Sequence record: MZ648215.1
Length of the DNA stretch: 39,577 nt
Direction: 5' to 3' (one strand)
Origin: Escherichia phage vB_EcoP_IMEP24
This document shows positions 578-39,577 of the stretch, piece after piece. The stretch's first letter is position 1; each line of letters opens with the position of its first letter. The notes beneath the pieces were generated by a model that saw only the letters and a program-made list of their open reading frames with translations, did no database searches and was not told the origin of the DNA. Position numbers and translations under genes: made by a program.

Positions 578-607
578 TTGACAAGCAGTAACGACTTAAA
601 GTAGTAT
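578..607 (+). promoter_or_regulatory. Host sigma70-type early promoter (A1-like)
   Basis: TTGACA 578-583, 18-nt spacer, TAGTAT 602-607; lies in early leader where T7 has A1-A3. Confidence 0.5.
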
Positions 608-725: not shown

Positions 726-754
726 TTGACAGCCTCCTTTAAAAGCTGTAAGAT
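726..754 (+). promoter_or_regulatory. Host sigma70-type early promoter (A2/A3-like)
   Basis: TTGACA 726-731, 17-nt spacer, TAAGAT 749-754; near-consensus -35 and good -10. Confidence 0.6.
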
Positions 755-1274: not shown

Positions 1275-1835
1275 ATGGAACGTAACGCTAACGCATACTA
1301 TGAGCTGCTGGCTGCAACCGTTAAAGCATTTAACGAGCGTATTCAGTACGACGAAATAGCTGAAGGCGATGACTACAGCGATGCGCTACATGAGGTCGTA
1401 GACGGTATGGTTCCGCACTATTACCACGAGATTTTCACGGTGATGGCTGCTGATGGTATAGACCACGAGTTTGAGGACTCTGGGCTGATGCCTGATACCA
1501 AAGACGTAACGCGTATACTGCAAGCTCGCATCTATGAGGCGCTTTATAACGACGTGTCTGATAGCTCGGATGTGGTATGGTTTGAGGCTGAAGAGAGCGA
1601 CGAAGAGGATGAATATTGGGTAGTTGACGCTAAAACAGGACTAATCATTGCGCAAGCTGTACCACTTAAAGACGCTATTGCGGTAAGTCGCAGTCCCTCT
1701 AAGGTAATAACAGGGGACACATACCACCTTGCAGGAAAGGACTTCAAGTCCAAAGACGAGGCGATACGCTATGCGGTTGAGCTTGCTGGCGGTCTTACTG
1801 TGACCAAGATGACAACCATCGCGGTGGAAGTGTAG
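1275..1835 (+). CDS. ocr: Ocr-like anti-restriction DNA mimic (T7 gene 0.3 homolog) with ~70-aa C-terminal extension
   Basis: N-terminal ~115 aa match T7 Ocr ([43 protein letters not shown], acidic stretch [11 protein letters not shown]); RBS gagagga upstream; 186 aa vs 117 aa in T7. Confidence 0.85.
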
Positions 1836-2195: not shown

Positions 2196-2521
2196 TGAAC
2201 AAGTCATACGGGATTAATCTGGTACACTCTATGGACGCAGAAATGAACATGTTAAGCCTACTGGCTACCGGGTATCGTCACGGGACGTCAAGTCACACCG
2301 CACGTCAACAACAGGAGCGCGACCGTGTACTTCAGGCACGACTCCGGGCCGAGGGCCATAAGTCTGAGCTGATGTGTCTGGCGTATGGTGGGCGACCAAT
2401 CACCGACGATGGTAAACTTCTGGTCTCAGGCTGGAAGGCGATAGACCAACGGTCAACCATCAAGCACACGACTCATGGTGACTTCAGTCATCTTCACGCT
2501 AACCCTCTGATATGCAAGTAA
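2195..2521 (+). CDS. Hypothetical early protein (108 aa)
   Basis: ORF with stop-start overlap (TAATGA) in the slot where T7 has genes 0.5-0.7; no kinase motifs. Confidence 0.5.
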   Translation: MNKSYGINLVHSMDAEMNMLSLLATGYRHGTSSHTARQQQERDRVLQARLRAEGHKSELMCLAYGGRPITDDGKLLVSGWKAIDQRSTIKHTTHGDFSHLHANPLICK

Positions 2522-2526
2522 TTCTG

Positions 2527-2549
2527 ACTTAACTATCACTATAGGACTC
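2527..2549 (+). promoter_or_regulatory. Phage RNAP promoter (class II type) upstream of RNAP gene
   Basis: cttaactatcactatagga, +1 G at 2544; matches the 12-member consensus in this genome. Confidence 0.7.
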
Positions 2550-2618
2550 AAGGTCTAAGACTCCAAGTGAAAGACCAAAGAGACTTTAAGTGAAAGACTA
2601 ATAACAAGGACTTTAAGT

Positions 2619-5300
2619 ATGAGCGTCATCTCTATTGACAAACACGACTTCTCTGATGTGTCGAACGCCATTGAGCCGTTTAACCTGCTGGCTGACCACT
2701 ATGGGCAAGACCTTGCAGTCAAGCAGCTTCAGCTTGAGCATGAGGCATACACTGAAGGTGAGCGACGTTTCATTAAGAACCTTGAGCGCCAGACCGAGCG
2801 CGGGGAACTGGCAGACAATCAGGTCGCTAAACCTCTGATGCAAACGCTGGTTCCGACCATCGCTAAGGCTTTCCGTGAGTGGCATGAAGGCCCGGAAGGT
2901 AAGTCATCGACCTCGCGTCCAAGCGTAGCGTTTACCATGCTGAGCACTGACGAGAAGGCTGTAAAAGACCGCTCTCTGCTAATCTCTGCGGAGTCTGCTG
3001 CGGTTATCATACTGAAGGTCATCCTCTCCAAGCTGGTCAAGCCTGAAGGGATACCGATAACTCCTATGGCATCCGCGATAGGTCGCACACTGGAAGATGA
3101 AATCCGCTTTGGTCGCATACGTGAGCAGGAGCAGGAGCACTTCAAGAAGACCATAGCGGAGAACCTGAAGAAACGCGCTGGCGCAAGCTACAAGAAAGCC
3201 TACATGCAGGCAGTCGAGGCGTCTATGCTTGAGCAGGGGCAACTGGCTGACGCTTGGGGGACTTGGAGTCCTACCGAGGCGGTACACGTTGGCATCAAGA
3301 TGCTTGAGATTGTCATCCAGTCCACACAACTGGTCGAGCTTAAGCGTTATGGTGCTGGCAATGCGGCGGCTGACGTTGAGATGGTCCACCTGTCAGACTT
3401 CTGGGTCAAGAAGATGGCACAACGTGGATTCAGCCTTGCGGGTATCGCACCAGTCTATCAACCTTGCGTCGTTCCACCTAAGCCGTGGACGGGTGTCGTA
3501 GGCGGTGGGTACTGGGCCAAAGGTCGCAGACCGTTACCATTGATTCGCTTAGGGTCTAAGTCTGCGGTAGCACGTTACGAAGACGTGTACATGCCTGAAG
3601 TCTATGACGCTGTGAACATCATTCAGAATACACCTTGGAAAGTTAACAAGAAGGTTCTGGACGTGGTGAACATGGTCGAGAAGCTGAACAACACGCCTAT
3701 TGATGACATCCCTCAAATGGAACCACTGAAGCCTGAGGACTATGCGGGTGAGACTGAAGAAGAACTCAAGGCATGGAAGAAAGCTGCTGCTGGTATCTAT
3801 CGCCGCGAGAAGGCCCGACAGTCACGCAGATTGTCGCTGAGTTTTATCGTCAGCCAAGCGAACAAGTTCTCGCAGTTTAAGGCTATCTGGTTCCCGTACA
3901 ACATGGATTGGCGCGGTCGCGTCTACGCTGTACCGATGTTCAACCCTCAGGGTAACGACATGCAGAAAGGTCTCCTGACTCTGGCAGTCGGAAAGCCTAT
4001 TGGCGCTGATGGTTTCAAATGGCTGAAGGTCCACGGTGCAAACTGTGCGGGTGTCGATAAAGTCACCTTCGAGGAGCGCATCAAGTGGGTGGAAGACAAC
4101 CACGACAACATCATGTCTACCGCTAAGGCCCCGATGGACAGCATTGAGTGGTGGGGTAAGTTAGACTCTCCTTTCTGCTTCCTAGCGTTCTGCTTCGAGT
4201 ATGCTGGCGTAATGCATCACGGCCTGTCTTACTCCTGCTCGTTGCCGATAGCGTTCGATGGGTCCTGCTCTGGGATTCAGCACTTCAGCGCGATGCTTCG
4301 TGACCACATCGGTGGACATGCAGTAAACCTGACGCCTTCCGGTAAGGTTCAAGACATCTACCGCATCGTGTCTGACCGCATTGAGGAGGAGCTTAAAGTC
4401 CTGCTGGTTAACGGTACGGACAACGAGATGGTCACTCACGAGGATAAGAAAACTGGTGAGATTACCGAACGTCTCAAGCTGGGGACACGAGAGCTGGCCC
4501 GGCAGTGGCTGACTTACGGTATGTCACGCAAGGTAACTAAGCGTTCGGTCATGACTCTGGCCTACGGGTCGAAAGAGTACGGATTCGCAGACCAAGTTTA
4601 CGAGGACATCGTGATGCCAGCGATTGACTCAGGGTCCGGCGCTATGTTCACTGAACCAAGCCAAGCGTCTCGCTTCATGGCTAAGATGATTTGGGAAGCT
4701 GTTAGTGTGACCGTAGTTGCTGCGGTTGACGCGATGAAGTGGCTTCAAGGTGCTGCCAAGCTGCTGGCTGCTGAAGTGAAGGACAAGAAGACTGGCGAAA
4801 TCCTGAAGCCATGTCTTCCGGTACACTGGGTCACACCTGATGGTTTCCCGGTCTGGCAGGAATACCGCAAGAAAGATACCACTCGTCTGAACCTGATGTT
4901 CTTAGGGTCATTCAACCTTCAGCCTACGGTCAACAAAGGCACGAAGAAAGAGCTGGACAAGCACAAGCAGGAGTCAGGCATTAGCCCGAACTTCGTCCAC
5001 TCACAAGATGGTAGCCACCTGCGCAAGACTGTAGTCCACACGCACCGCAAGTATGGCGTGATGTCGTTCGCAGTGATCCACGATAGCTTCGGGACCATCC
5101 CGGCTGACGCTGAGTATCTGTTCCGTGGCGTCCGTGAGACAATGGTTGAGACCTACCGCGACAACGATGTGCTGCTTGACTTCTACGAGCAGTTCGAATA
5201 CCAGCTTCACGAGAGTCAGCGCGATAAGCTGCCTGAGCTTCCGAAGAAAGGTAAACTGAATATCGAAGACATCCTGTCTTCAGACTTTGCATTCGCTTAA
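2619..5300 (+). CDS. Single-subunit DNA-directed RNA polymerase (T7 gene 1 homolog)
   Basis: 893 aa; near-collinear with T7 RNAP incl. KAIWFPYNMDWRGRVYAV, HGANCAGVDK, LPxAFDGSCSGIQHFSAMLRD, VHSQDGSHLRK, IHDSFGT, C-terminal FAFA. Confidence 0.98.
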   Translation: MSVISIDKHDFSDVSNAIEPFNLLADHYGQDLAVKQLQLEHEAYTEGERRFIKNLERQTERGELADNQVAKPLMQTLVPTIAKAFREWHEGPEGKSSTSRPSVAFTMLSTDEKAVKDRSLLISAESAAVIILKVILSKLVKPEGIPITPMASAIGRTLEDEIRFGRIREQEQEHFKKTIAENLKKRAGASYKKAYMQAVEASMLEQGQLADAWGTWSPTEAVHVGIKMLEIVIQSTQLVELKRYGAGNAAADVEMVHLSDFWVKKMAQRGFSLAGIAPVYQPCVVPPKPWTGVVGGGYWAKGRRPLPLIRLGSKSAVARYEDVYMPEVYDAVNIIQNTPWKVNKKVLDVVNMVEKLNNTPIDDIPQMEPLKPEDYAGETEEELKAWKKAAAGIYRREKARQSRRLSLSFIVSQANKFSQFKAIWFPYNMDWRGRVYAVPMFNPQGNDMQKGLLTLAVGKPIGADGFKWLKVHGANCAGVDKVTFEERIKWVEDNHDNIMSTAKAPMDSIEWWGKLDSPFCFLAFCFEYAGVMHHGLSYSCSLPIAFDGSCSGIQHFSAMLRDHIGGHAVNLTPSGKVQDIYRIVSDRIEEELKVLLVNGTDNEMVTHEDKKTGEITERLKLGTRELARQWLTYGMSRKVTKRSVMTLAYGSKEYGFADQVYEDIVMPAIDSGSGAMFTEPSQASRFMAKMIWEAVSVTVVAAVDAMKWLQGAAKLLAAEVKDKKTGEILKPCLPVHWVTPDGFPVWQEYRKKDTTRLNLMFLGSFNLQPTVNKGTKKELDKHKQESGISPNFVHSQDGSHLRKTVVHTHRKYGVMSFAVIHDSFGTIPADAEYLFRGVRETMVETYRDNDVLLDFYEQFEYQLHESQRDKLPELPKKGKLNIEDILSSDFAFA

Positions 5301-5312
5301 CAGGAGAGAGTT

Positions 5313-5513
5313 ATGAAATTTGCACACAAGCAGACTGGCGTTAATGGCGGGACTCAAATCGTGACTGTAACGGAGCACAACGGGAAGGGTCTGGTGAAGA
5401 CCACGGTCATTCCTACAGAAATGGCAAAGCAGCTTAACGTACCGTTCAAGTGGCTAGTTAAGTTGGTCGAGGAGCGTCACGAGGCAGAACTTAAAGAGGC
5501 AGCAACCAAATGA
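5313..5513 (+). CDS. Hypothetical protein (66 aa)
   Basis: ORF with RBS aggagag 6 nt upstream; sits between RNAP gene and gene 1.1. Confidence 0.5.
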   Translation: MKFAHKQTGVNGGTQIVTVTEHNGKGLVKTTVIPTEMAKQLNVPFKWLVKLVEERHEAELKEAATK

Positions 5514-5591
5514 CAGACCTACAGTTACTGGCCTTGTGGCTGGGAGCACTCGCAGTATTCACTTTAATCCAACGCAGAAGAGGTTAACCTT

Positions 5592-6065
5592 ATGTTCGGT
5601 AAGTCAAAACTTGAAGCACAAATCGAGGAGTTGAGCATGAAGGTGGTATGTTTGAAGCGAGCCGTAGAGGTCCGGGACAAGGACAACGAGCGGCTGAAGG
5701 ATAAGCTCGCTGAAGCCGAGCGTAAGCGCCTAACGCCACCAGCGGCTGTAACCCTCAAGCGTATGGTCGGCATCAAGTTCAAGGCGCTGTTCGATGGTAA
5801 GTATCAGCCCACTGAGTTCAAGATAGGTCTTGGCAAGTGTGGGAAGGTGGTCAACTACTTCGAGGTGACTAAGCGTGAAGACCGGACGCTTACCATTCAC
5901 CAGTATCACACAGACGGGTCGTCTAAGGACTTCGAGTACCGACTCGGAGACATCGACGGTCGCATCCAGTATGACTACGAGCTGATGCAAGTCTACGGCG
6001 AGGAGGCAGAACGTGAGCGAGCGATTCAGGCATTCATGCAAGTAAGACCTCGCATCGTCATCTAA
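5592..6065 (+). CDS. Hypothetical protein (157 aa), coiled-coil N-terminus
   Basis: ORF; stop TAA is embedded in the downstream phage promoter; no recognised similarity. Confidence 0.55.
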   Translation: MFGKSKLEAQIEELSMKVVCLKRAVEVRDKDNERLKDKLAEAERKRLTPPAAVTLKRMVGIKFKALFDGKYQPTEFKIGLGKCGKVVNYFEVTKREDRTLTIHQYHTDGSSKDFEYRLGDIDGRIQYDYELMQVYGEEAERERAIQAFMQVRPRIVI

Positions 6066-6083
6066 ACTATCACTATAGGATTA
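6061..6083 (+). promoter_or_regulatory. Phage RNAP promoter (phi1.1-like)
   Basis: tctaaactatcactatagga, +1 G at 6078. Confidence 0.8.
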
Positions 6084-6124
6084 GACTCAAGGTCATGACT
6101 CAAAGTCGTGGCCTTCATGATTAA
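6081..6124 (+). other. RNase III-type processing hairpin (R1.1-like)
   Basis: TTAGACTCAAGGTCAT..GTGGCCTTCATGATTAA; 10-bp stem with G.U wobbles; same element recurs at 13401 and 36152. Confidence 0.5.
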
Positions 6125-6154
6125 CCCTATAACCTAAACAACTGGAGCTACAAC

Positions 6155-6334
6155 ATGTATCAGAACACTATCAACTTCGAGCGCATCCGTGAACGTCAGC
6201 AGACTGAAGATTATATTCCGAAGGGACGCAAGCTGAACAAGACCAAGCGTGGTGGTGGTGTCAAGGGTGCTTTCCGTAACGCTGAAGGTAAAGACTCTCT
6301 GGTAAACCAAGAGAAATACTTCGTAGGAGCATAA
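6155..6334 (+). CDS. Gene 1.1-like protein (59 aa)
   Basis: Below the ORF track cutoff; RBS ggag; shares KGRKLNKTKR with T7 gp1.1. Confidence 0.65.
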   Translation: MYQNTINFERIRERQQTEDYIPKGRKLNKTKRGGGVKGAFRNAEGKDSLVNQEKYFVGA

Positions 6335-6338
6335 CGCT

Positions 6339-6602
6339 ATGGGCCGACTTTATAGTGGCAACCTAAACGCTTTCAAAGCAGCGTGTAACAGGCTCTATCA
6401 GTTAGACTTCTGCGTGATACAGAAGGATTGGTACGAGGCGCATCTTCGGAAAGAGTGCATGAGACTTCAAGTCGAGGACCGAGCTGGTAACATCTTCGCG
6501 CTTAAGACCTTCGCTCACCACGATGAAGACGTACTGTACAACACTGCAACAGGCTTCCTTAACTGCCTCGCTAACCAACTCGACACATGGAGAAAATCAT
6601 AA
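6339..6602 (+). CDS. Gene 1.2 protein (host dGTPase inhibitor homolog)
   Basis: MGRLYSGNLxAFKAA...HHDEDVL matches T7 gp1.2 along whole length; 87 aa. Confidence 0.85.
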   Translation: MGRLYSGNLNAFKAACNRLYQLDFCVIQKDWYEAHLRKECMRLQVEDRAGNIFALKTFAHHDEDVLYNTATGFLNCLANQLDTWRKS

Positions 6603-7663
6603 TGACTACGACTATTAAAACTAACCCGCACCGCGCTGTAGATTACTCTGAGTCTGGCGTTAAGAAGGCTCTGGAAGCTGCTGGGTCGCTGGAAGCTGAA
6701 GTGAAGTACGATGGTGTCCGGTTGAACCTTACGGTCTTCCCTACTGGTGAGACTCAATGGCTGAGCCGTGAGTCCAAAGAGCTTCCAGCACTTCAGCATC
6801 TGAAGTCAGAACATGGGAGTCCTACCGAATTAACAAACTGTGGAGACTGGCGCTGGTTCCTGAAGCAAGCAGGACATGAGGTCTCTGGCCTGATGATTGA
6901 CGGTGAGGTCATGGTCAAGGGTGTAGACTTCAATACGTCTTCAGGTCTCATCCGAACGAAGTGGTTGAAGCAAAAGAACTTTGAGTTTTCAACTGGTGAG
7001 CACTGGGGTAAGGACAGGAAGAAAGAGAAGCTACCATTCTGTCTGGACCAGAGGTTCATCAAAGTGGTCGTCTACGGGGTCATCGACCTTAACGTCATCA
7101 CCGACCCGACAGCCGAAGGTCCTATCCATAGCGTCACACGCCTGAAGGCCGAAGCTATCGTCCCTCTCCTCCAGAAATACTTCCCTGAAATCGACTGGGT
7201 TCTGTCTGAGTCACACACGGTCTATGACCTTGAGTCGCTCAACTCCCTGTACGAACAGAAGCGTCTGGAAGGACACGAGGGTCTGGTAGTCAAGGACCCG
7301 CTTGGTAAATACAAGCGTGGCAAGAAGTCTGGCATGTGGAAAATGAAGCCTGAGGAGACCATCGACGGGACCGTGTGTGGCCTAGTGTGGGGGACTCCGG
7401 GTAAGGCCAACGAAGGTAAGGTGATTGGCTTTGAGGTTCTGCTTGAGGATGGCATGGTGGTTAACGCCTGTGGTCTGACTGAAGAACAGAAGGACGAGTT
7501 CACACTAGCTGTTAAGACTCAGGAGCTAAACGGTGACAGCCACGCCTATGAAGGATGGCAGTGTGAGGTCCTATTCATGGAGAGGTTCCCTGATGGCTCC
7601 CTTCGTCACCCTAGCTTCAAGTGCTGGCGCGGGACGGAAGACAATCCAACCGTTAAGAGCTAA
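6602..7663 (+). CDS. ATP-dependent DNA ligase (T7 gene 1.3 homolog)
   Basis: KYDGVR adenylation motif, LMIDGEVMVKGVDFNTSSGL, EGHEGLVVKDP, KRGKKSGMWKMKPE, DGSLRHPSF; start placed at ATG 6602 (MTTTIKTNP matches T7 N-terminus), overlapping 1.2 stop. Confidence 0.93.
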   Translation: MTTTIKTNPHRAVDYSESGVKKALEAAGSLEAEVKYDGVRLNLTVFPTGETQWLSRESKELPALQHLKSEHGSPTELTNCGDWRWFLKQAGHEVSGLMIDGEVMVKGVDFNTSSGLIRTKWLKQKNFEFSTGEHWGKDRKKEKLPFCLDQRFIKVVVYGVIDLNVITDPTAEGPIHSVTRLKAEAIVPLLQKYFPEIDWVLSESHTVYDLESLNSLYEQKRLEGHEGLVVKDPLGKYKRGKKSGMWKMKPEETIDGTVCGLVWGTPGKANEGKVIGFEVLLEDGMVVNACGLTEEQKDEFTLAVKTQELNGDSHAYEGWQCEVLFMERFPDGSLRHPSFKCWRGTEDNPTVKS

Positions 7664-7672
7664 CTAAACGTC

Positions 7673-7710
7673 AACCCAGTGGTCTTCGGACTGCTGGGTT
7701 TCTTTGCTTT
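7673..7710 (+). terminator. Rho-independent terminator (early terminator TE equivalent)
   Basis: AACCCAG..CTGGGTT stem followed by TTCTTTGCTTT; located right after ligase as in T7. Confidence 0.65.
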
Positions 7711-7746
7711 GTGCTAACAAGCTATCGTTTGGGGTACCAGCCTGAC

Positions 7747-7769
7747 CCTAAGCTATCACTATAGGACAA
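7747..7769 (+). promoter_or_regulatory. Phage RNAP promoter
   Basis: cctaagctatcactatagga, +1 G at 7764 (one variant base at -13). Confidence 0.7.
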
Positions 7770-7797
7770 CCATAACTTCGACCTAAGGAGGCCGACC

Positions 7798-8058
7798 ATG
7801 TTTAAGAACTTAATGTTCAACCGTTATACCAGTACATTCCACCTGTCTCACAACCCGTTCGCTTGCATTAAGCGCAACGAGAAGCTGGGCTACTTCGGGA
7901 AGGCCGTTAAGCTGTCACCTACAGTCTTCGCTCTGATTACTCCGGGCAAAGTTGAAGAGGCCCGACAGAAGCGTGAGACCAACGTACCTGTGGTCTACAC
8001 CAAGTGGCCTCGCGTTCGTCTGTTCGTTGAGTTCGTGAAGGAGGTGGTCAATGACTAA
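7798..8058 (+). CDS. Gene 1.6-like protein
   Basis: RBS aggagg; pattern similarity to T7 gp1.6 (LSPTVFALITPG; KWPRVRLFVEFVKEV). Confidence 0.7.
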   Translation: MFKNLMFNRYTSTFHLSHNPFACIKRNEKLGYFGKAVKLSPTVFALITPGKVEEARQKRETNVPVVYTKWPRVRLFVEFVKEVVND

Positions 8059-8479
8059 GCACGAGCGGATAGTAGTGAAACTGGTAGAACAGAACACCGA
8101 TAAACCAGATGACCATGACTCCTGTGCAGGGACATCATGCTATGGCGTAGATTGTAGTGGTTGCCCCTTCGACGATAATGACGATGGGGAGATGACTTTA
8201 GGCAAACTCCGCGAGTCCATCAAGCCAGCAGCTACCGAAGATGGTGTACGCAAGCCATCCCACTATCAGGTCTTTGACGGTGTGGAATCCATTGAGATTA
8301 TCGCTCGGTCCATGACTGTCAGTGAGTTCCGTGGTTTCTGCATGGGTAACGTCCTGAAGTATCGACTCCGAGCTGGTAAGAAGTCAGAGCTGGCTACTAT
8401 GGAGAAGGACCTGAACAAAGCAGCCTTCTATCAGGAGCTGTTCGACCTACATAAAGGTAAGTGCTATGCTGCCGAGTGA
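8051..8479 (+). CDS. Gene 1.7-like protein (nucleotide kinase family in T7)
   Basis: C-terminal half matches T7 gp1.7 (PSHYQVFDGVESIEIIARSMTVSEFRGFCMGNVLKYRLRAGKKSELA); RBS aggagg. Confidence 0.8.
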   Translation: MTKHERIVVKLVEQNTDKPDDHDSCAGTSCYGVDCSGCPFDDNDDGEMTLGKLRESIKPAATEDGVRKPSHYQVFDGVESIEIIARSMTVSEFRGFCMGNVLKYRLRAGKKSELATMEKDLNKAAFYQELFDLHKGKCYAAE

Positions 8480-8561
8480 GTGGTGCGAGCGTAAATTTGA
8501 AGAGACAGGTAACGTAGATTACCTTGAACTCTATAACCAATGGAAGGAGCGTGGTCTATGA
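8466..8561 (+). CDS. Small ORF (31 aa), gene 1.8 position
   Basis: Short ORF between 1.7 and 2 with stop overlapping gene 2 start; weak RBS; positional call only. Confidence 0.3.
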
Positions 8562-8713
8562 CCGATGAGAAGAAATACATCGTGGAGCTTGAGGGTCGCG
8601 TTCAGTCCTTCGAGGTTCCGGTGTACGCAAAGTCTCTTGAAGAGGCTACCCTGAAGTCCCAAGAGTATGAGGACGCTGGGTTTGTGGTCGGACGGATTCG
8701 TCCTGAGACCTAA
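8558..8713 (+). CDS. gp2-like inhibitor of host RNA polymerase (51 aa)
   Basis: Below ORF track cutoff; [15 protein letters not shown]...[10 protein letters not shown] matches T7 gp2 core; RBS ggaaggag. Confidence 0.8.
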
Positions 8714-8731
8714 ACTATCACTGTAGGACAG
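8709..8731 (+). promoter_or_regulatory. Phage RNAP promoter (phi2.5-like), variant
   Basis: cctaaactatcactgtagga; A to G at -3; +1 G at 8726. Confidence 0.6.
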
Positions 8732-8771
8732 ACGTCAAGTTCGTAACTTTTAAATTAGGAGATTTACACAG

Positions 8772-9470
8772 ATGGCTAAAGAGCAACTGAAGACTTTCAC
8801 CACTCCGGTAGCTGGTATCGTTGAGCCGTACGCATGGCTGAACAAAGCAGACACCAAGTTTAACGAGCGTGGTGAGCATAAGGTTAACCTGACATTCGAC
8901 CTGAGCAACCCGAAGGTCCGTAAGATGATTGATGTCTTACAGAAGATTCACGACGATGCGTATGCGAAAGCACTCGCAGACCACGAGAAGAACCCACCTC
9001 AGGTTCAGCGTGGCAAGAAGCCTATTGAACCACGAGAAGGCGACATGCCGTGGATTGAGAATGGTGACGGTACTGTTACCCTGAAGTTTAAATGCTTCGC
9101 GTCTTACCTGAAGGATGGTAAGTCAGAGCCTATCGTATTACGGTTCTACGACACCGATGCTAAGTTAATCCGTGACGTCCCGAATATTGGCGCTGGCTCC
9201 AAACTGAAGGTCAAGTTTAAAGTCCTGCCGTTCAAGTGGAACGCTGCGACTGGTGCAAGCGTTAAGCTCCAGCTTGAGTCCTGCCTTCTGGTAGAACTGA
9301 AGGAGTGGAAAGGGGATGGTGCTGGTGGAGATGGTGGCTGGGGTGATGATGAAGACCTCGGTACTGGCTACAAAGCGTCAACCGATGGTGACTTCGGGTC
9401 TGATGACTTTGGTGACGATGGTTCCGAAGGCGGTGACGACTCCAACTCTGGTGGCGATTACGACTTCTAA
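8772..9470 (+). CDS. Single-stranded DNA-binding protein gp2.5
   Basis: MAKE...AEPYAW, GDMPWxxNGDGT, SKLKVKFK..VKLQLESxxLVEL, acidic C-terminal tail ending DYDF, as in T7 gp2.5. Confidence 0.93.
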   Translation: MAKEQLKTFTTPVAGIVEPYAWLNKADTKFNERGEHKVNLTFDLSNPKVRKMIDVLQKIHDDAYAKALADHEKNPPQVQRGKKPIEPREGDMPWIENGDGTVTLKFKCFASYLKDGKSEPIVLRFYDTDAKLIRDVPNIGAGSKLKVKFKVLPFKWNAATGASVKLQLESCLLVELKEWKGDGAGGDGGWGDDEDLGTGYKASTDGDFGSDDFGDDGSEGGDDSNSGGDYDF

Positions 9471-9922: not shown

Positions 9923-10146
9923 TGACTCAAGAAGTTAAGGTCGTTCGTCAGCGTCTGACCATTGATAAAATCCCGGTAGGCTATGCGTTTATCGTCCACG
10001 GTAAGCCGGGTGAAGTGTACGTGAAGATTAGTAACTCTCACGTCTTCAACCATAAGTTGCTCCAGATGCACACCACGGATGCTAACCGTTTCCAGCGTCA
10101 TCTGAACCTCGTAGCTGTAGAGCTGGTGGTGTACGATGGTGAGTAA
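9922..10146 (+). CDS. Hypothetical protein (74 aa)
   Basis: ORF between endo I and lysozyme with RBS aaaggag; start taken at ATG 9922. Confidence 0.5.
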   Translation: MTQEVKVVRQRLTIDKIPVGYAFIVHGKPGEVYVKISNSHVFNHKLLQMHTTDANRFQRHLNLVAVELVVYDGE

Positions 10147-10594
10147 GGTTCAGTTCAACCCACGGTCCCGGACTGACGCTATCTTCGTTCACTGTTCGGC
10201 TACCAAGCCAGATATGGACATCGGAGTAGAGACCATCCGTATGTGGCACAAGCAGCAAGGCTGGCTGGACGTAGGCTACCACTTTATCATCAAGCGTGAT
10301 GGTACTGTGGAAGAGGGCCGCCCGGTCAATGTCGTAGGGTCACACGTTAAGGACTGGAACTCCAAGTCCGTAGGCGTCTGCCTTGTAGGTGGAATCAACG
10401 CTAAGGGTCAGTTTGAAGCTAACTTCACTCCAGCCCAGATGAATTCCCTTCGCAACAAGCTGGCTGACCTGAAGGCCCTATATCCTCAGGCAGAAATCAA
10501 AGCACACCATGACGTAGCACCAAAGGCGTGTCCAAGTTTTGACTTGCAACGCTGGCTGTCTACCAATGAACTGGTCACTTCCGACCACGGTTGA
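10136..10594 (+). CDS. Lysozyme / N-acetylmuramoyl-L-alanine amidase (T7 gene 3.5)
   Basis: TDAIFVHCSATKP, WHKxQGWLDVGYHFIIKRDGTVExGR, GVCLVGGI, AHHxVAPKACPSFDL, ELVTSDHG; near-collinear with T7 lysozyme. Confidence 0.96.
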   Translation: MVSKVQFNPRSRTDAIFVHCSATKPDMDIGVETIRMWHKQQGWLDVGYHFIIKRDGTVEEGRPVNVVGSHVKDWNSKSVGVCLVGGINAKGQFEANFTPAQMNSLRNKLADLKALYPQAEIKAHHDVAPKACPSFDLQRWLSTNELVTSDHG

Positions 10595-10618: not shown

Positions 10619-10834
10619 ATGATTAAACTTATCGAATTTCTTGGTCGTCTGGTGGTGCGTGGCTATCGTCGTGCTGCGGTACTGGAACGAAAGGTAGAAA
10701 AGAAGACTGCTGACGGTGCGGCTGATGCTGCTGCTCTGGCTGACAAGCTGACCATCGCGTCACTGGAAGCTGGAATGAAGGTGCGTCAAGCTGACACCAA
10801 AGCTGACCAGTTGGCTCAGTTCTTCAAAGCCTAA
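10619..10834 (+). CDS. Hypothetical protein (71 aa), Ala-rich
   Basis: ORF with RBS aaaggaga; stop overlaps downstream promoter. Confidence 0.5.
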   Translation: MIKLIEFLGRLVVRGYRRAAVLERKVEKKTADGAADAAALADKLTIASLEAGMKVRQADTKADQLAQFFKA

Positions 10835-10852
10835 ACTATCACCTTAGGGATG
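10830..10852 (+). promoter_or_regulatory. Phage RNAP promoter, divergent variant
   Basis: cctaaactatcaccttaggga; two changes at -4/-3; +1 G at 10847. Confidence 0.45.
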
Positions 10853-10902: not shown

Positions 10903-11079
10903 ATGGATGGTGTGCCAAGACACATGAGGTATTACGTTGGTAATACTGGGAAGAACCGAAGGTCTAAACTCAAAGAGAGACTAAAGCGGGAAGTACCTGA
11001 TGCTAATCAACGCGCTGCTGTACTTGCTATTATGGAGGAATACGCCATTCTGTATCACCTAAAGTTTACTAAGGAGTGA
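10903..11079 (+). CDS. Hypothetical basic protein (58 aa)
   Basis: Below ORF cutoff; preceded by taaggagtgaccaATG, a 16-bp string repeated exactly at the gene 4 start. Confidence 0.5.
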   Translation: MDGVPRHMRYYVGNTGKNRRSKLKERLKREVPDANQRAAVLAIMEEYAILYHLKFTKE

Positions 11080-13386: not shown

Positions 13387-13403
13387 CTATCACTTTAGGA
13401 TAG
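13381..13403 (+). promoter_or_regulatory. Phage RNAP promoter, variant
   Basis: gcttaactatcactttagga; A to T at -3; +1 G at 13398. Confidence 0.55.
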
Positions 13404-13440
13404 ACTCAAGGTCATTCACACCGAGTGGCCTTTATGATTA
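13401..13440 (+). other. RNase III-type processing hairpin
   Basis: TAGACTCAAGGTCAT..GTGGCCTTTATGATTA; same box as 6081 and 36152. Confidence 0.5.
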
Positions 13441-13461
13441 GACTAAAGCGGAGGATTAACC

Positions 13462-17431: not shown

Positions 17432-17454
17432 ACTAAACTATCACTATAGGGACT
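17432..17454 (+). promoter_or_regulatory. Phage RNAP promoter (class III type, phi6.5-like)
   Basis: cactaaactatcactatagggac; +1 G at 17449. Confidence 0.85.
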
Positions 17455-36151: not shown

Positions 36152-36190
36152 TTAGACTCAAGGTCATCGTCAGGTGGCCTTTATGATTAA
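36152..36190 (+). other. RNase III-type processing hairpin (R18.5-like)
   Basis: TTAGACTCAAGGTCAT..GGTGGCCTTTATGATTAA; third copy of the box. Confidence 0.5.
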
Positions 36191-36204
36191 CATTAGGAGG
36201 GTTT

Positions 36205-39393: not shown

Positions 39394-39577
39394 TCTCACA
39401 CTTCAAGAACCTCAAGTCTCCCCCATAGGCCCTCTTTCAGTCCAGACCAAGGGTGGCCCACCTCCAGTCTATCATAGGGTTGGACCGGCTGTCAATATCT
39501 CAAGTCAACGATTGGTCATGACTATCGGTGGTGGTGGTGACGATAGGTTGGGACTATTGGTCTGTCTCTGAGTCTTT
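39394..39577. repeat. Right direct terminal repeat (184 bp)
   Basis: Identical to 1..184. Confidence 0.9.

Follow-up and report, generated by a model that had tools for sequence, protein, structure and literature searches.

A K1F-type phage promoter and repeat-bearing leader directly upstream of the gene for RNA polymerase in Escherichia phage vB_EcoP_IMEP24

The early region and the promoter before gene 1

The window analysed here, 39,577 nt in length, is the complete linear T7-like genome of Escherichia phage vB_EcoP_IMEP24 (IMEP24), a Kayfunavirus (K1F-like, Studiervirinae). The genome is bounded by a terminal repeat of 184 bp, in which nt 1–184 recur at 39394–39577. Just inside this repeat, at positions 200–278, the 15-nt unit AGTCCAACAACCTAC is repeated 5.3 times in tandem without a mismatch; this array probably corresponds to the short repeats adjoining the T7 concatemer junction. 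The early region is arranged as in T7 (Table 1), and the hairpin that resembles the early terminator TE occupies the same position as TE in both T7 and T3. The product of gene 1, which is an RNA polymerase (RNAP) of the single-subunit type, has 97.5% and 63% amino acid identity with the RNAP of K1F and T7, respectively. The 1.6-kb region around the promoter that precedes gene 1 is matched by 219 phage records at 80–95% identity, the top match being Enterobacter phage vB_VIPECLMC06 (94% identity).

Table 1. Features of the IMEP24 early region and of the promoter and leader preceding gene 1 (positions in the window)
Feature	Position	Strand	Basis or remark
Sigma-70-type early promoter, TTGACA-18-TAGTAT	578–607	+	Consensus scan
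Sigma-70-type early promoter, TTGACA-17-TAAGAT	726–754	+	Consensus scan
ocr, gene 0.3	1275–1835		
Upstream ORF, 108 aa	2195–2521	+	Stop codon ends 5 nt upstream of the promoter
K1F-type phage RNA polymerase promoter, -17 to +6, ACTTAACTATCACTATAGGACTC	2527–2549	+	Perfect match to the IMEP24 consensus
Predicted transcription start, +1 G	2544	+	Alignment to the T7 promoter frame (CACTATA-G+1)
Leader, 75 nt	2544–2618	+	From +1 to the base before the ATG
Near-palindromic word GACTYYAAGK, four copies	Starts at 2545, 2559, 2582, 2608	+	
Direct repeat, copy 1, AGACTCCAAGTGAAAGACCAA	2558–2578	+	Holds the 11-mer at 2566–2576
Direct repeat, copy 2, AGACTTTAAGTGAAAGACTAA	2581–2601	+	Holds the 11-mer at 2588–2598
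Shine-Dalgarno sequence AAGGA	2606–2610	+	8 nt 5' of the ATG
Gene 1, single-subunit RNA polymerase, 893 aa	2619–5300	+	ATG at 2619
T3 gene 1.05 homologue	5592–6065		
Next phage promoter downstream	6061–6083	+	Site at 6063
T7 R1.1-like RNase III site	about 6081–6123		After the promoter at 6061–6083
Gene 1.1 homologue	6155–6334		
Gene 1.2	6339–6602		
Ligase	6587–7663		
Hairpin and subsequent T-run resembling the early terminator TE	7673–7700	+	Just 3' of the ligase gene
gp2	8540–8713		
gp3.5-type protein, Amidase_2 (lysozyme-type inhibitor)	10136–10594		

Two of the gene products encoded upstream of the promoter deserve brief comment. The ocr-like anti-restriction protein has 186 residues, and the Pfam ocr domain spans residues 8–96 only, so that about 90 C-terminal residues lie outside it. 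The 108-residue product of the ORF adjoining the promoter has no Pfam match. Several related records give this ORF the name "protein kinase" or "inhibitor of host transcription", and in some it is annotated as a fragment of the gp0.7 kinase, an assignment that we rejected, a BLASTP comparison with T7 gp0.7 having given no significant match (E = 0.16). The gp0.7 kinase is seemingly absent from the IMEP24 genome; Dev2 and LET1 encode a kinase of 244 aa.

The gap of 97 nt located 5' of gene 1 contains the 18-mer TTAACTATCACTATAGGA at positions 2529–2546 of the plus strand, a perfect K1F-type promoter. The initial annotation had reported a good match to the phage promoter consensus 75 nt upstream of the polymerase gene, and this was borne out, with the predicted +1 at G2544 and the ATG at 2619. 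When up to three mismatches were allowed, the 18-mer was found at 11 sites in the genome, all of them on the plus strand and within or at the edges of intergenic gaps, versus 0.02 sites expected from shuffled sequences. In a leave-one-out weight matrix covering -17 to +6, the gene 1 promoter scores 31.7 bits, which is mid-range among the 11 sites (24.0–35.2 bits), and over -15 to +3 its sequence is the consensus of the other 10. Promoters of the K1F class are defined by about 23 conserved bp, from -17 to +6; the site before gene 1 has both the core TCACTATAGG and the specificity bases ACTAT at -12 to -8 that typify this class. Because the initial sequence (+1 to +6) is GGACTC and not the GGGAGA of T7 class III promoters, the promoter is considered class II-like. 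Starts with GGG are confined, among the 11 sites, to those at 17434, 21242, 25791, and 38797. A weaker twelfth promoter-like site, ACTATCACCTTAGGG, with two core mismatches, is present at 10832–10850, in the intergenic stretch that precedes the ORF starting at 10903.

The promoter before gene 1 is the leftmost phage promoter of the genome. A search of the plus strand of positions 1–2500 with the 13-nt promoter core, allowing up to three mismatches, revealed no phiOL-like site, and no phage promoter directly follows gene 1 in the IMEP24 genome. At about 383–398, after GACTTAAGGTC/AAAGAC words at 338–375, there is a degenerate promoter-like string, cttagtcactatgggg, which could be a decayed phiOL.

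Conservation, co-variation with the polymerase and earlier annotation

The same promoter and leader are found in K1F and Peacock at the same distance from gene 1, the promoter being identical, and K1F differs from IMEP24 by one mismatch over this 95-nt module. The module is matched with at least 80% query coverage in 218 phage records, with 109 records at least 99% identical. The arrangement is the genus-wide layout of Kayfunavirus, present in about 220 records, and K1F and other members share with IMEP24 the 23-bp promoter, its distance to the ATG, and the leader with both repeats, without any substantial difference. In a sample of 19 type-A genomes, i.e., genomes with the same leader type, the promoter has a pairwise diversity of 0.005 and the leader one of 0.013, compared with 0.17 at the third codon positions of gene 1 and 0.29 at those of the upstream ORF. 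That the leader is so tightly conserved could be due to some role besides the expression of gene 1, e.g., the priming of replication. In the type-B lineage (Dev2, LET1, SFPH2, and Ro45lw), the promoter is in place and reads CACTAAAGG, which is one step off the TATAGG consensus of these phages themselves, and the strength of the promoter may therefore be modest or variable. Of the repeat, the type-B leader retains only one perfect copy, together with a degenerate one.

The site also changes together with the specificity of the polymerase. In the Kayfunavirus Enterobacter phage EcpYZU01, the RNAP of which (6192–8858) is 85.8% identical to that of IMEP24, all four promoters seen in 12 kb (2710, 6097, 9619, and 11478) have the T3-like form AACCCTCACTrTAGG, including the promoter located 82 nt upstream of gene 1. 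The EcpYZU01 enzyme has D748 and R756 (T7 numbering) and its promoters have C at both -10 and -9, while the enzymes of IMEP24 and K1F have N748 and N756 and the corresponding promoter bases are T at -10 and A at -9. The replacement N748D is a known T7-to-T3 specificity change. On sequence grounds, EcpYZU01 represents a natural specificity switch within one genus, and the fact that the sequence of the site before gene 1 tracks the specificity of the polymerase argues that this site is used by the polymerase. Pairs of K1F RNAP and K1F promoters have been found to be functional in vivo (PMC12218169; PMC11880802).

These results bear on the proposal that the match arose by chance or is a relic, unused by the polymerase, or else that it is a host sigma-70 promoter. 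The record of phage PE3-1 (KJ748011), in which the equivalent 23 bp (2874–2896) are annotated as a promoter, carries the note "host RNAP promoter", and in T7 and T3 a minor E. coli promoter, C, does lie just before gene 1. However, a perfect phage consensus, with so few sites expected by chance, conserved in about 220 genomes and altered in step with the polymerase in EcpYZU01, is hard to reconcile with either version of this proposal, and a scan of both strands with the sigma-70 consensus gave no match in the region from 2255 to 6347. We consider it extremely improbable that the site is a relic or a host promoter. Because no sigma-70 match was found in the gap, the label in the PE3-1 record is almost certainly a mislabel.

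The promoter before gene 1 is thus real but already known. In addition to the PE3-1 annotation, the record of CR44b (HG818823) includes a 23-bp "predicted promoter" immediately 5' of gene 1, and in a 2026 description of vB_EcoA-Sparklingdew a CTWAACTATCACTATAGG site is listed at the 3' end of the gene that comes before that for RNA polymerase, the repeats being read as promoters (PMC13298934). The papers on the Citrobacter phages SH4/SH5 and on a Hafnia phage contain nothing specific on a promoter before gene 1.

Outside the genus, the left end of the genome is organized differently. In the records of T7, T3, K11, Yepe2, FE44, and PP47, the region directly upstream of gene 1 has no annotated phage promoter; what directly precedes the gene is the RNase III site R1 and the minor E. 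coli promoter C in the T3 record, and the C promoter in the T7 record. Upstream of the host promoters, phiOL is annotated in T7, T3, K11, and Yepe2, and PP47 has an unnamed predicted phage promoter there; FE44 has no such annotation. The left end of IMEP24, unlike those of T7, T3, K11, Yepe2, and PP47, is without a phiOL-type promoter. The statement in the initial annotation that T7 gene 1 is driven by host promoters only is therefore accurate in that no phage promoter is annotated in the region immediately 5' of gene 1, but phiOL is located upstream of the host promoters and hence of gene 1 as well.

The leader: repeats, folding and resemblance to primary origin regions

The leader is composed of 62.7% A+T, with 43% A, in a genome of 50% G+C. 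It includes the 11-mer AAGTGAAAGAC twice; this direct repeat, which had been recognized at first inspection, is exact, and a direct repeat of at least 11 nt occurred in only 0.26% of mononucleotide shuffles of the leader. The similarity extends over 21 nt (86% identity, spacing 23), and the repeat is embedded in the four copies of the word GACTYYAAGK (Table 1). With four ACTYHARG words in 90 nt, the gene 1 leader is the densest cluster of this word in the genome (P about 0.008 under random placement). At its 3' end, the sequence AGGACTTTAAGTATG before IMEP24 gene 1 is identical to the ribosome-binding site of T7 gene 1.1.

The leader had also been credited with hairpin potential, and this did not survive closer analysis. 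The minimum free energy of the leader RNA is -16.1 kcal/mol, compared with -16.8 +/- 2.7 kcal/mol in shuffles (z = +0.25), and the value for a 201-nt context is likewise unremarkable (z = +0.36). A repeat search found no inverted repeat with both arms inside the leader, an Rfam scan gave zero matches across the whole window, and RNAalifold applied to six leader variants returned a consensus of -3.9 kcal/mol with 0 compensatory pair changes. The folding and Rfam results also weigh against the view that gene 1 mRNA is controlled, in its processing or translation, by an RNA structure made by the repeats, whether a regulatory hairpin or an RNase III site of the T7 R1 kind. An R1 RNase III site is indeed present at the equivalent position in T7, T3, and the Berlinvirus phages, and the IMEP24 leader starts with GACTCAAGGTC, the 5' half of an R1.1-type element seen at about 6081, 13401, and 36153, but the 3' half of that element, GTGGCCTTTATGATTA, is absent from the leader. 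In place of a stable irregular hairpin of about 20 bp, with halves of the type ...AAGGTCAT...GTGGCCTTTATGATT..., only GACTCAAGGTC is present, and control of gene 1 through an RNA structure of this kind seems very unlikely.

Elsewhere in the genome, three paralogous elements of the form TAGACTCAAGGTCAT...GTGGCCTTyATGATTA, at about 6081–6123, 13401–13443, and 36153–36191, closely match the T7 R1.1 RNase III site (T7 5858–5895). The sequence GACTCAAGGT occurs five times in the genome, all occurrences being intergenic, and one of them is the start of the gene 1 leader.

A different role for the promoter and leader would be mainly that of a primary DNA replication origin, the counterpart of T7 phi1.1A/B with its AT-rich region and of T3 phi1.05 with its rep_origin. 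In this view, the phage DNA polymerase would be primed in the A+T-rich, repeat-bearing leader by short transcripts started at the promoter, and gene 1 would be transcribed merely as a by-product of the module's location. Such a role is compatible with autogenous transcription of gene 1, and both can hold. In T7, phi1.1A/B are primary origins and phi6.5 is a secondary origin (PMC8373140). The best local alignment of the IMEP24 leader in the whole T7 genome is with the leader between phi1.1B and gene 1.1, with a score of 52 over a background of 19 +/- 5, and none of 1000 shuffles reached this score; the next, unrelated match scores 39, so that the margin is a modest one. When the T7 and Vi06 sequences were searched by nhmmer with a profile of Kayfunavirus leaders, the gene 1.1 leader ranked first in both, again with modest statistics (E value 0.001 in Vi06 and 0.12 in T7), and blastn gave weak matches to gene 1.1 leaders. 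In T3, K11, Yepe2, FE44, and Vi06, iterated ACTTTAAG/ACTTAAAG words make up the leader that follows the first phage promoter located downstream of gene 1, and in each of these five phages ACTTTAAG-type words are more densely clustered there than anywhere else in the early region sampled; in the T3 record, the region after phi1.05 is annotated as the primary origin. Within T7, the leaders richest in such words and in A+T are those following phi1.1B, phi6.5, and phiOL.

The IMEP24 module shares with T7 phi1.1B and T3 phi1.05 a class II-like GGA start and an A+T-rich leader of 75–90 nt made up of ACTTTAAG/CTTAAG-type words, and it is likewise the first phage promoter met in the early region, in a genome that has neither a promoter directly after gene 1 nor a phiOL-like site. 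It differs in that it lies upstream of gene 1 and transcribes the polymerase gene, whereas the T7 and T3 modules lie downstream; in that it has a single promoter in place of a tandem pair; and in that its leader is less A+T-rich (62.7% against 70% in the T7 phi1.1B leader). The leader of the IMEP24 gene 1.1 homologue itself, which follows the promoter at 6063, is a different one. A primase-site argument for an origin was discarded: the leader contains one TGGTC primase-type site (2573–2577, bottom strand), and about one is expected by chance at this length, the genome-wide density being 9.3 per kb. With the similarities and differences taken together, we regard a role mainly as a primary origin as possible, though somewhat doubtful.

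From the sequence comparisons, the Kayfunavirus module looks like the T3 phi1.05/T7 phi1.1B module set on the other side of gene 1, and the repeat-bearing leader would be one form of the leaders, built of iterated words, that are found after the first phage promoter, in the primary origin region, of other T7-group phages. We further suggest, as a speculation that is rather unlikely to hold in full, that the module was moved upstream of gene 1, where one element became both an origin and an autogenous promoter, and that clusters of ACTTTAAG words are a general origin signature of the T7 group. Such a signature, so far unnamed, would consist of near-palindromic ACTTTAAG-type word clusters after phiOL, phi1.05/1.1, and phi6.5.

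The pattern is seen in the Berlinvirus leaders that follow phi1.1 (Yepe2 5256–5330 and FE44 5664–5710), in which four to six tandem ACTTTAAG units are spaced by 11–12 nt, or about one helical turn. The Yepe2 leader has six tandem ACTTTAAG-type copies with a spacing of 11–12 nt, and a second ACTTTAAG cluster follows phiOL in this phage, at 713–800. The Berlinvirus pattern is iteron-like, and to our knowledge no named function has been assigned to it.

Probable autogenous transcription of gene 1

The explanation that we favour is that the site at 2527–2549 is very probably a working promoter for the phage's own T7-type RNAP, of K1F specificity and class II-like. This cognate promoter is located 5' of the polymerase ORF on the same strand, and no terminator-like site was found between 2544 and 2619. 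Because of this lack of an intervening terminator-like site, autogenous transcription of gene 1, added to transcription from the host promoters, would follow as a natural consequence and is the likely effect of the promoter. In the proposed sequence of events, host RNA polymerase starting from the sigma-70 promoters near 580 and 730 would read rightward through gene 1 and so provide the first polymerase molecules. The phage enzyme would then initiate at G2544 and transcribe its own gene behind the 75-nt A-rich leader and the AAGGA ribosome-binding site. A positive feedback loop would thus be added, and gene 1 could still be transcribed after gp2 has shut off the host polymerase. By analogy with the class II promoters of T7, gp3.5, the lysozyme-type inhibitor, presumably sets a limit to the loop. 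The suggestion in the initial annotation that a phage promoter here would let the polymerase amplify its own synthesis is well supported by the sequence and comparative properties of the promoter and by the uninterrupted path to gene 1; the arrangement is, however, not peculiar to this genome, since it is genus-wide and has already been annotated.

Comparable arrangements have been described in other phages. In Pseudomonas phage LUZ100, the promoter phi1, mapped by ONT-cappable-seq, is located directly upstream of the RNAP gene and a positive feedback model has been put forward (PMC10134795), while in Vibrio phage phiA318 a predicted cognate promoter before the RNAP gene has been discussed under the term "autoregulation" (PMC4099482). 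Both resemble IMEP24 in having a cognate promoter before the polymerase gene, with feedback proposed to follow an initial host-driven expression. Both are distant members of the Autographiviridae, however, with promoter sequences unrelated to that of IMEP24; the LUZ100 promoter is tied to a MarR-type lysogeny switch, and the phiA318 promoter precedes both the kinase and the RNAP genes. A polymerase that transcribes its own gene is also the principle of the synthetic T7 "autogene", in which Dubendorff and Studier in 1991 reportedly placed T7 gene 1 under a T7 promoter. The autogene is an engineered plasmid construct, in contrast to the natural arrangement of IMEP24, in which the first polymerase would come from read-through from the host promoters. 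Because the layout is found throughout the genus, has been annotated, and has been discussed for other Autographiviridae, no new principle emerges from the IMEP24 instance.

What the present analysis contributes is modest and comparative, and lies in the likely kinship of the module with the primary-origin module of T7 and T3, which provides a concrete and testable guess as to where replication starts in Kayfunavirus. With a cognate promoter before the polymerase gene, the supply of polymerase would become self-reinforcing, and the host polymerase would no longer be needed for it once infection is under way. This may be relevant to the timing of infection, as well as to the use of K1F-type polymerase/promoter pairs in synthetic biology.
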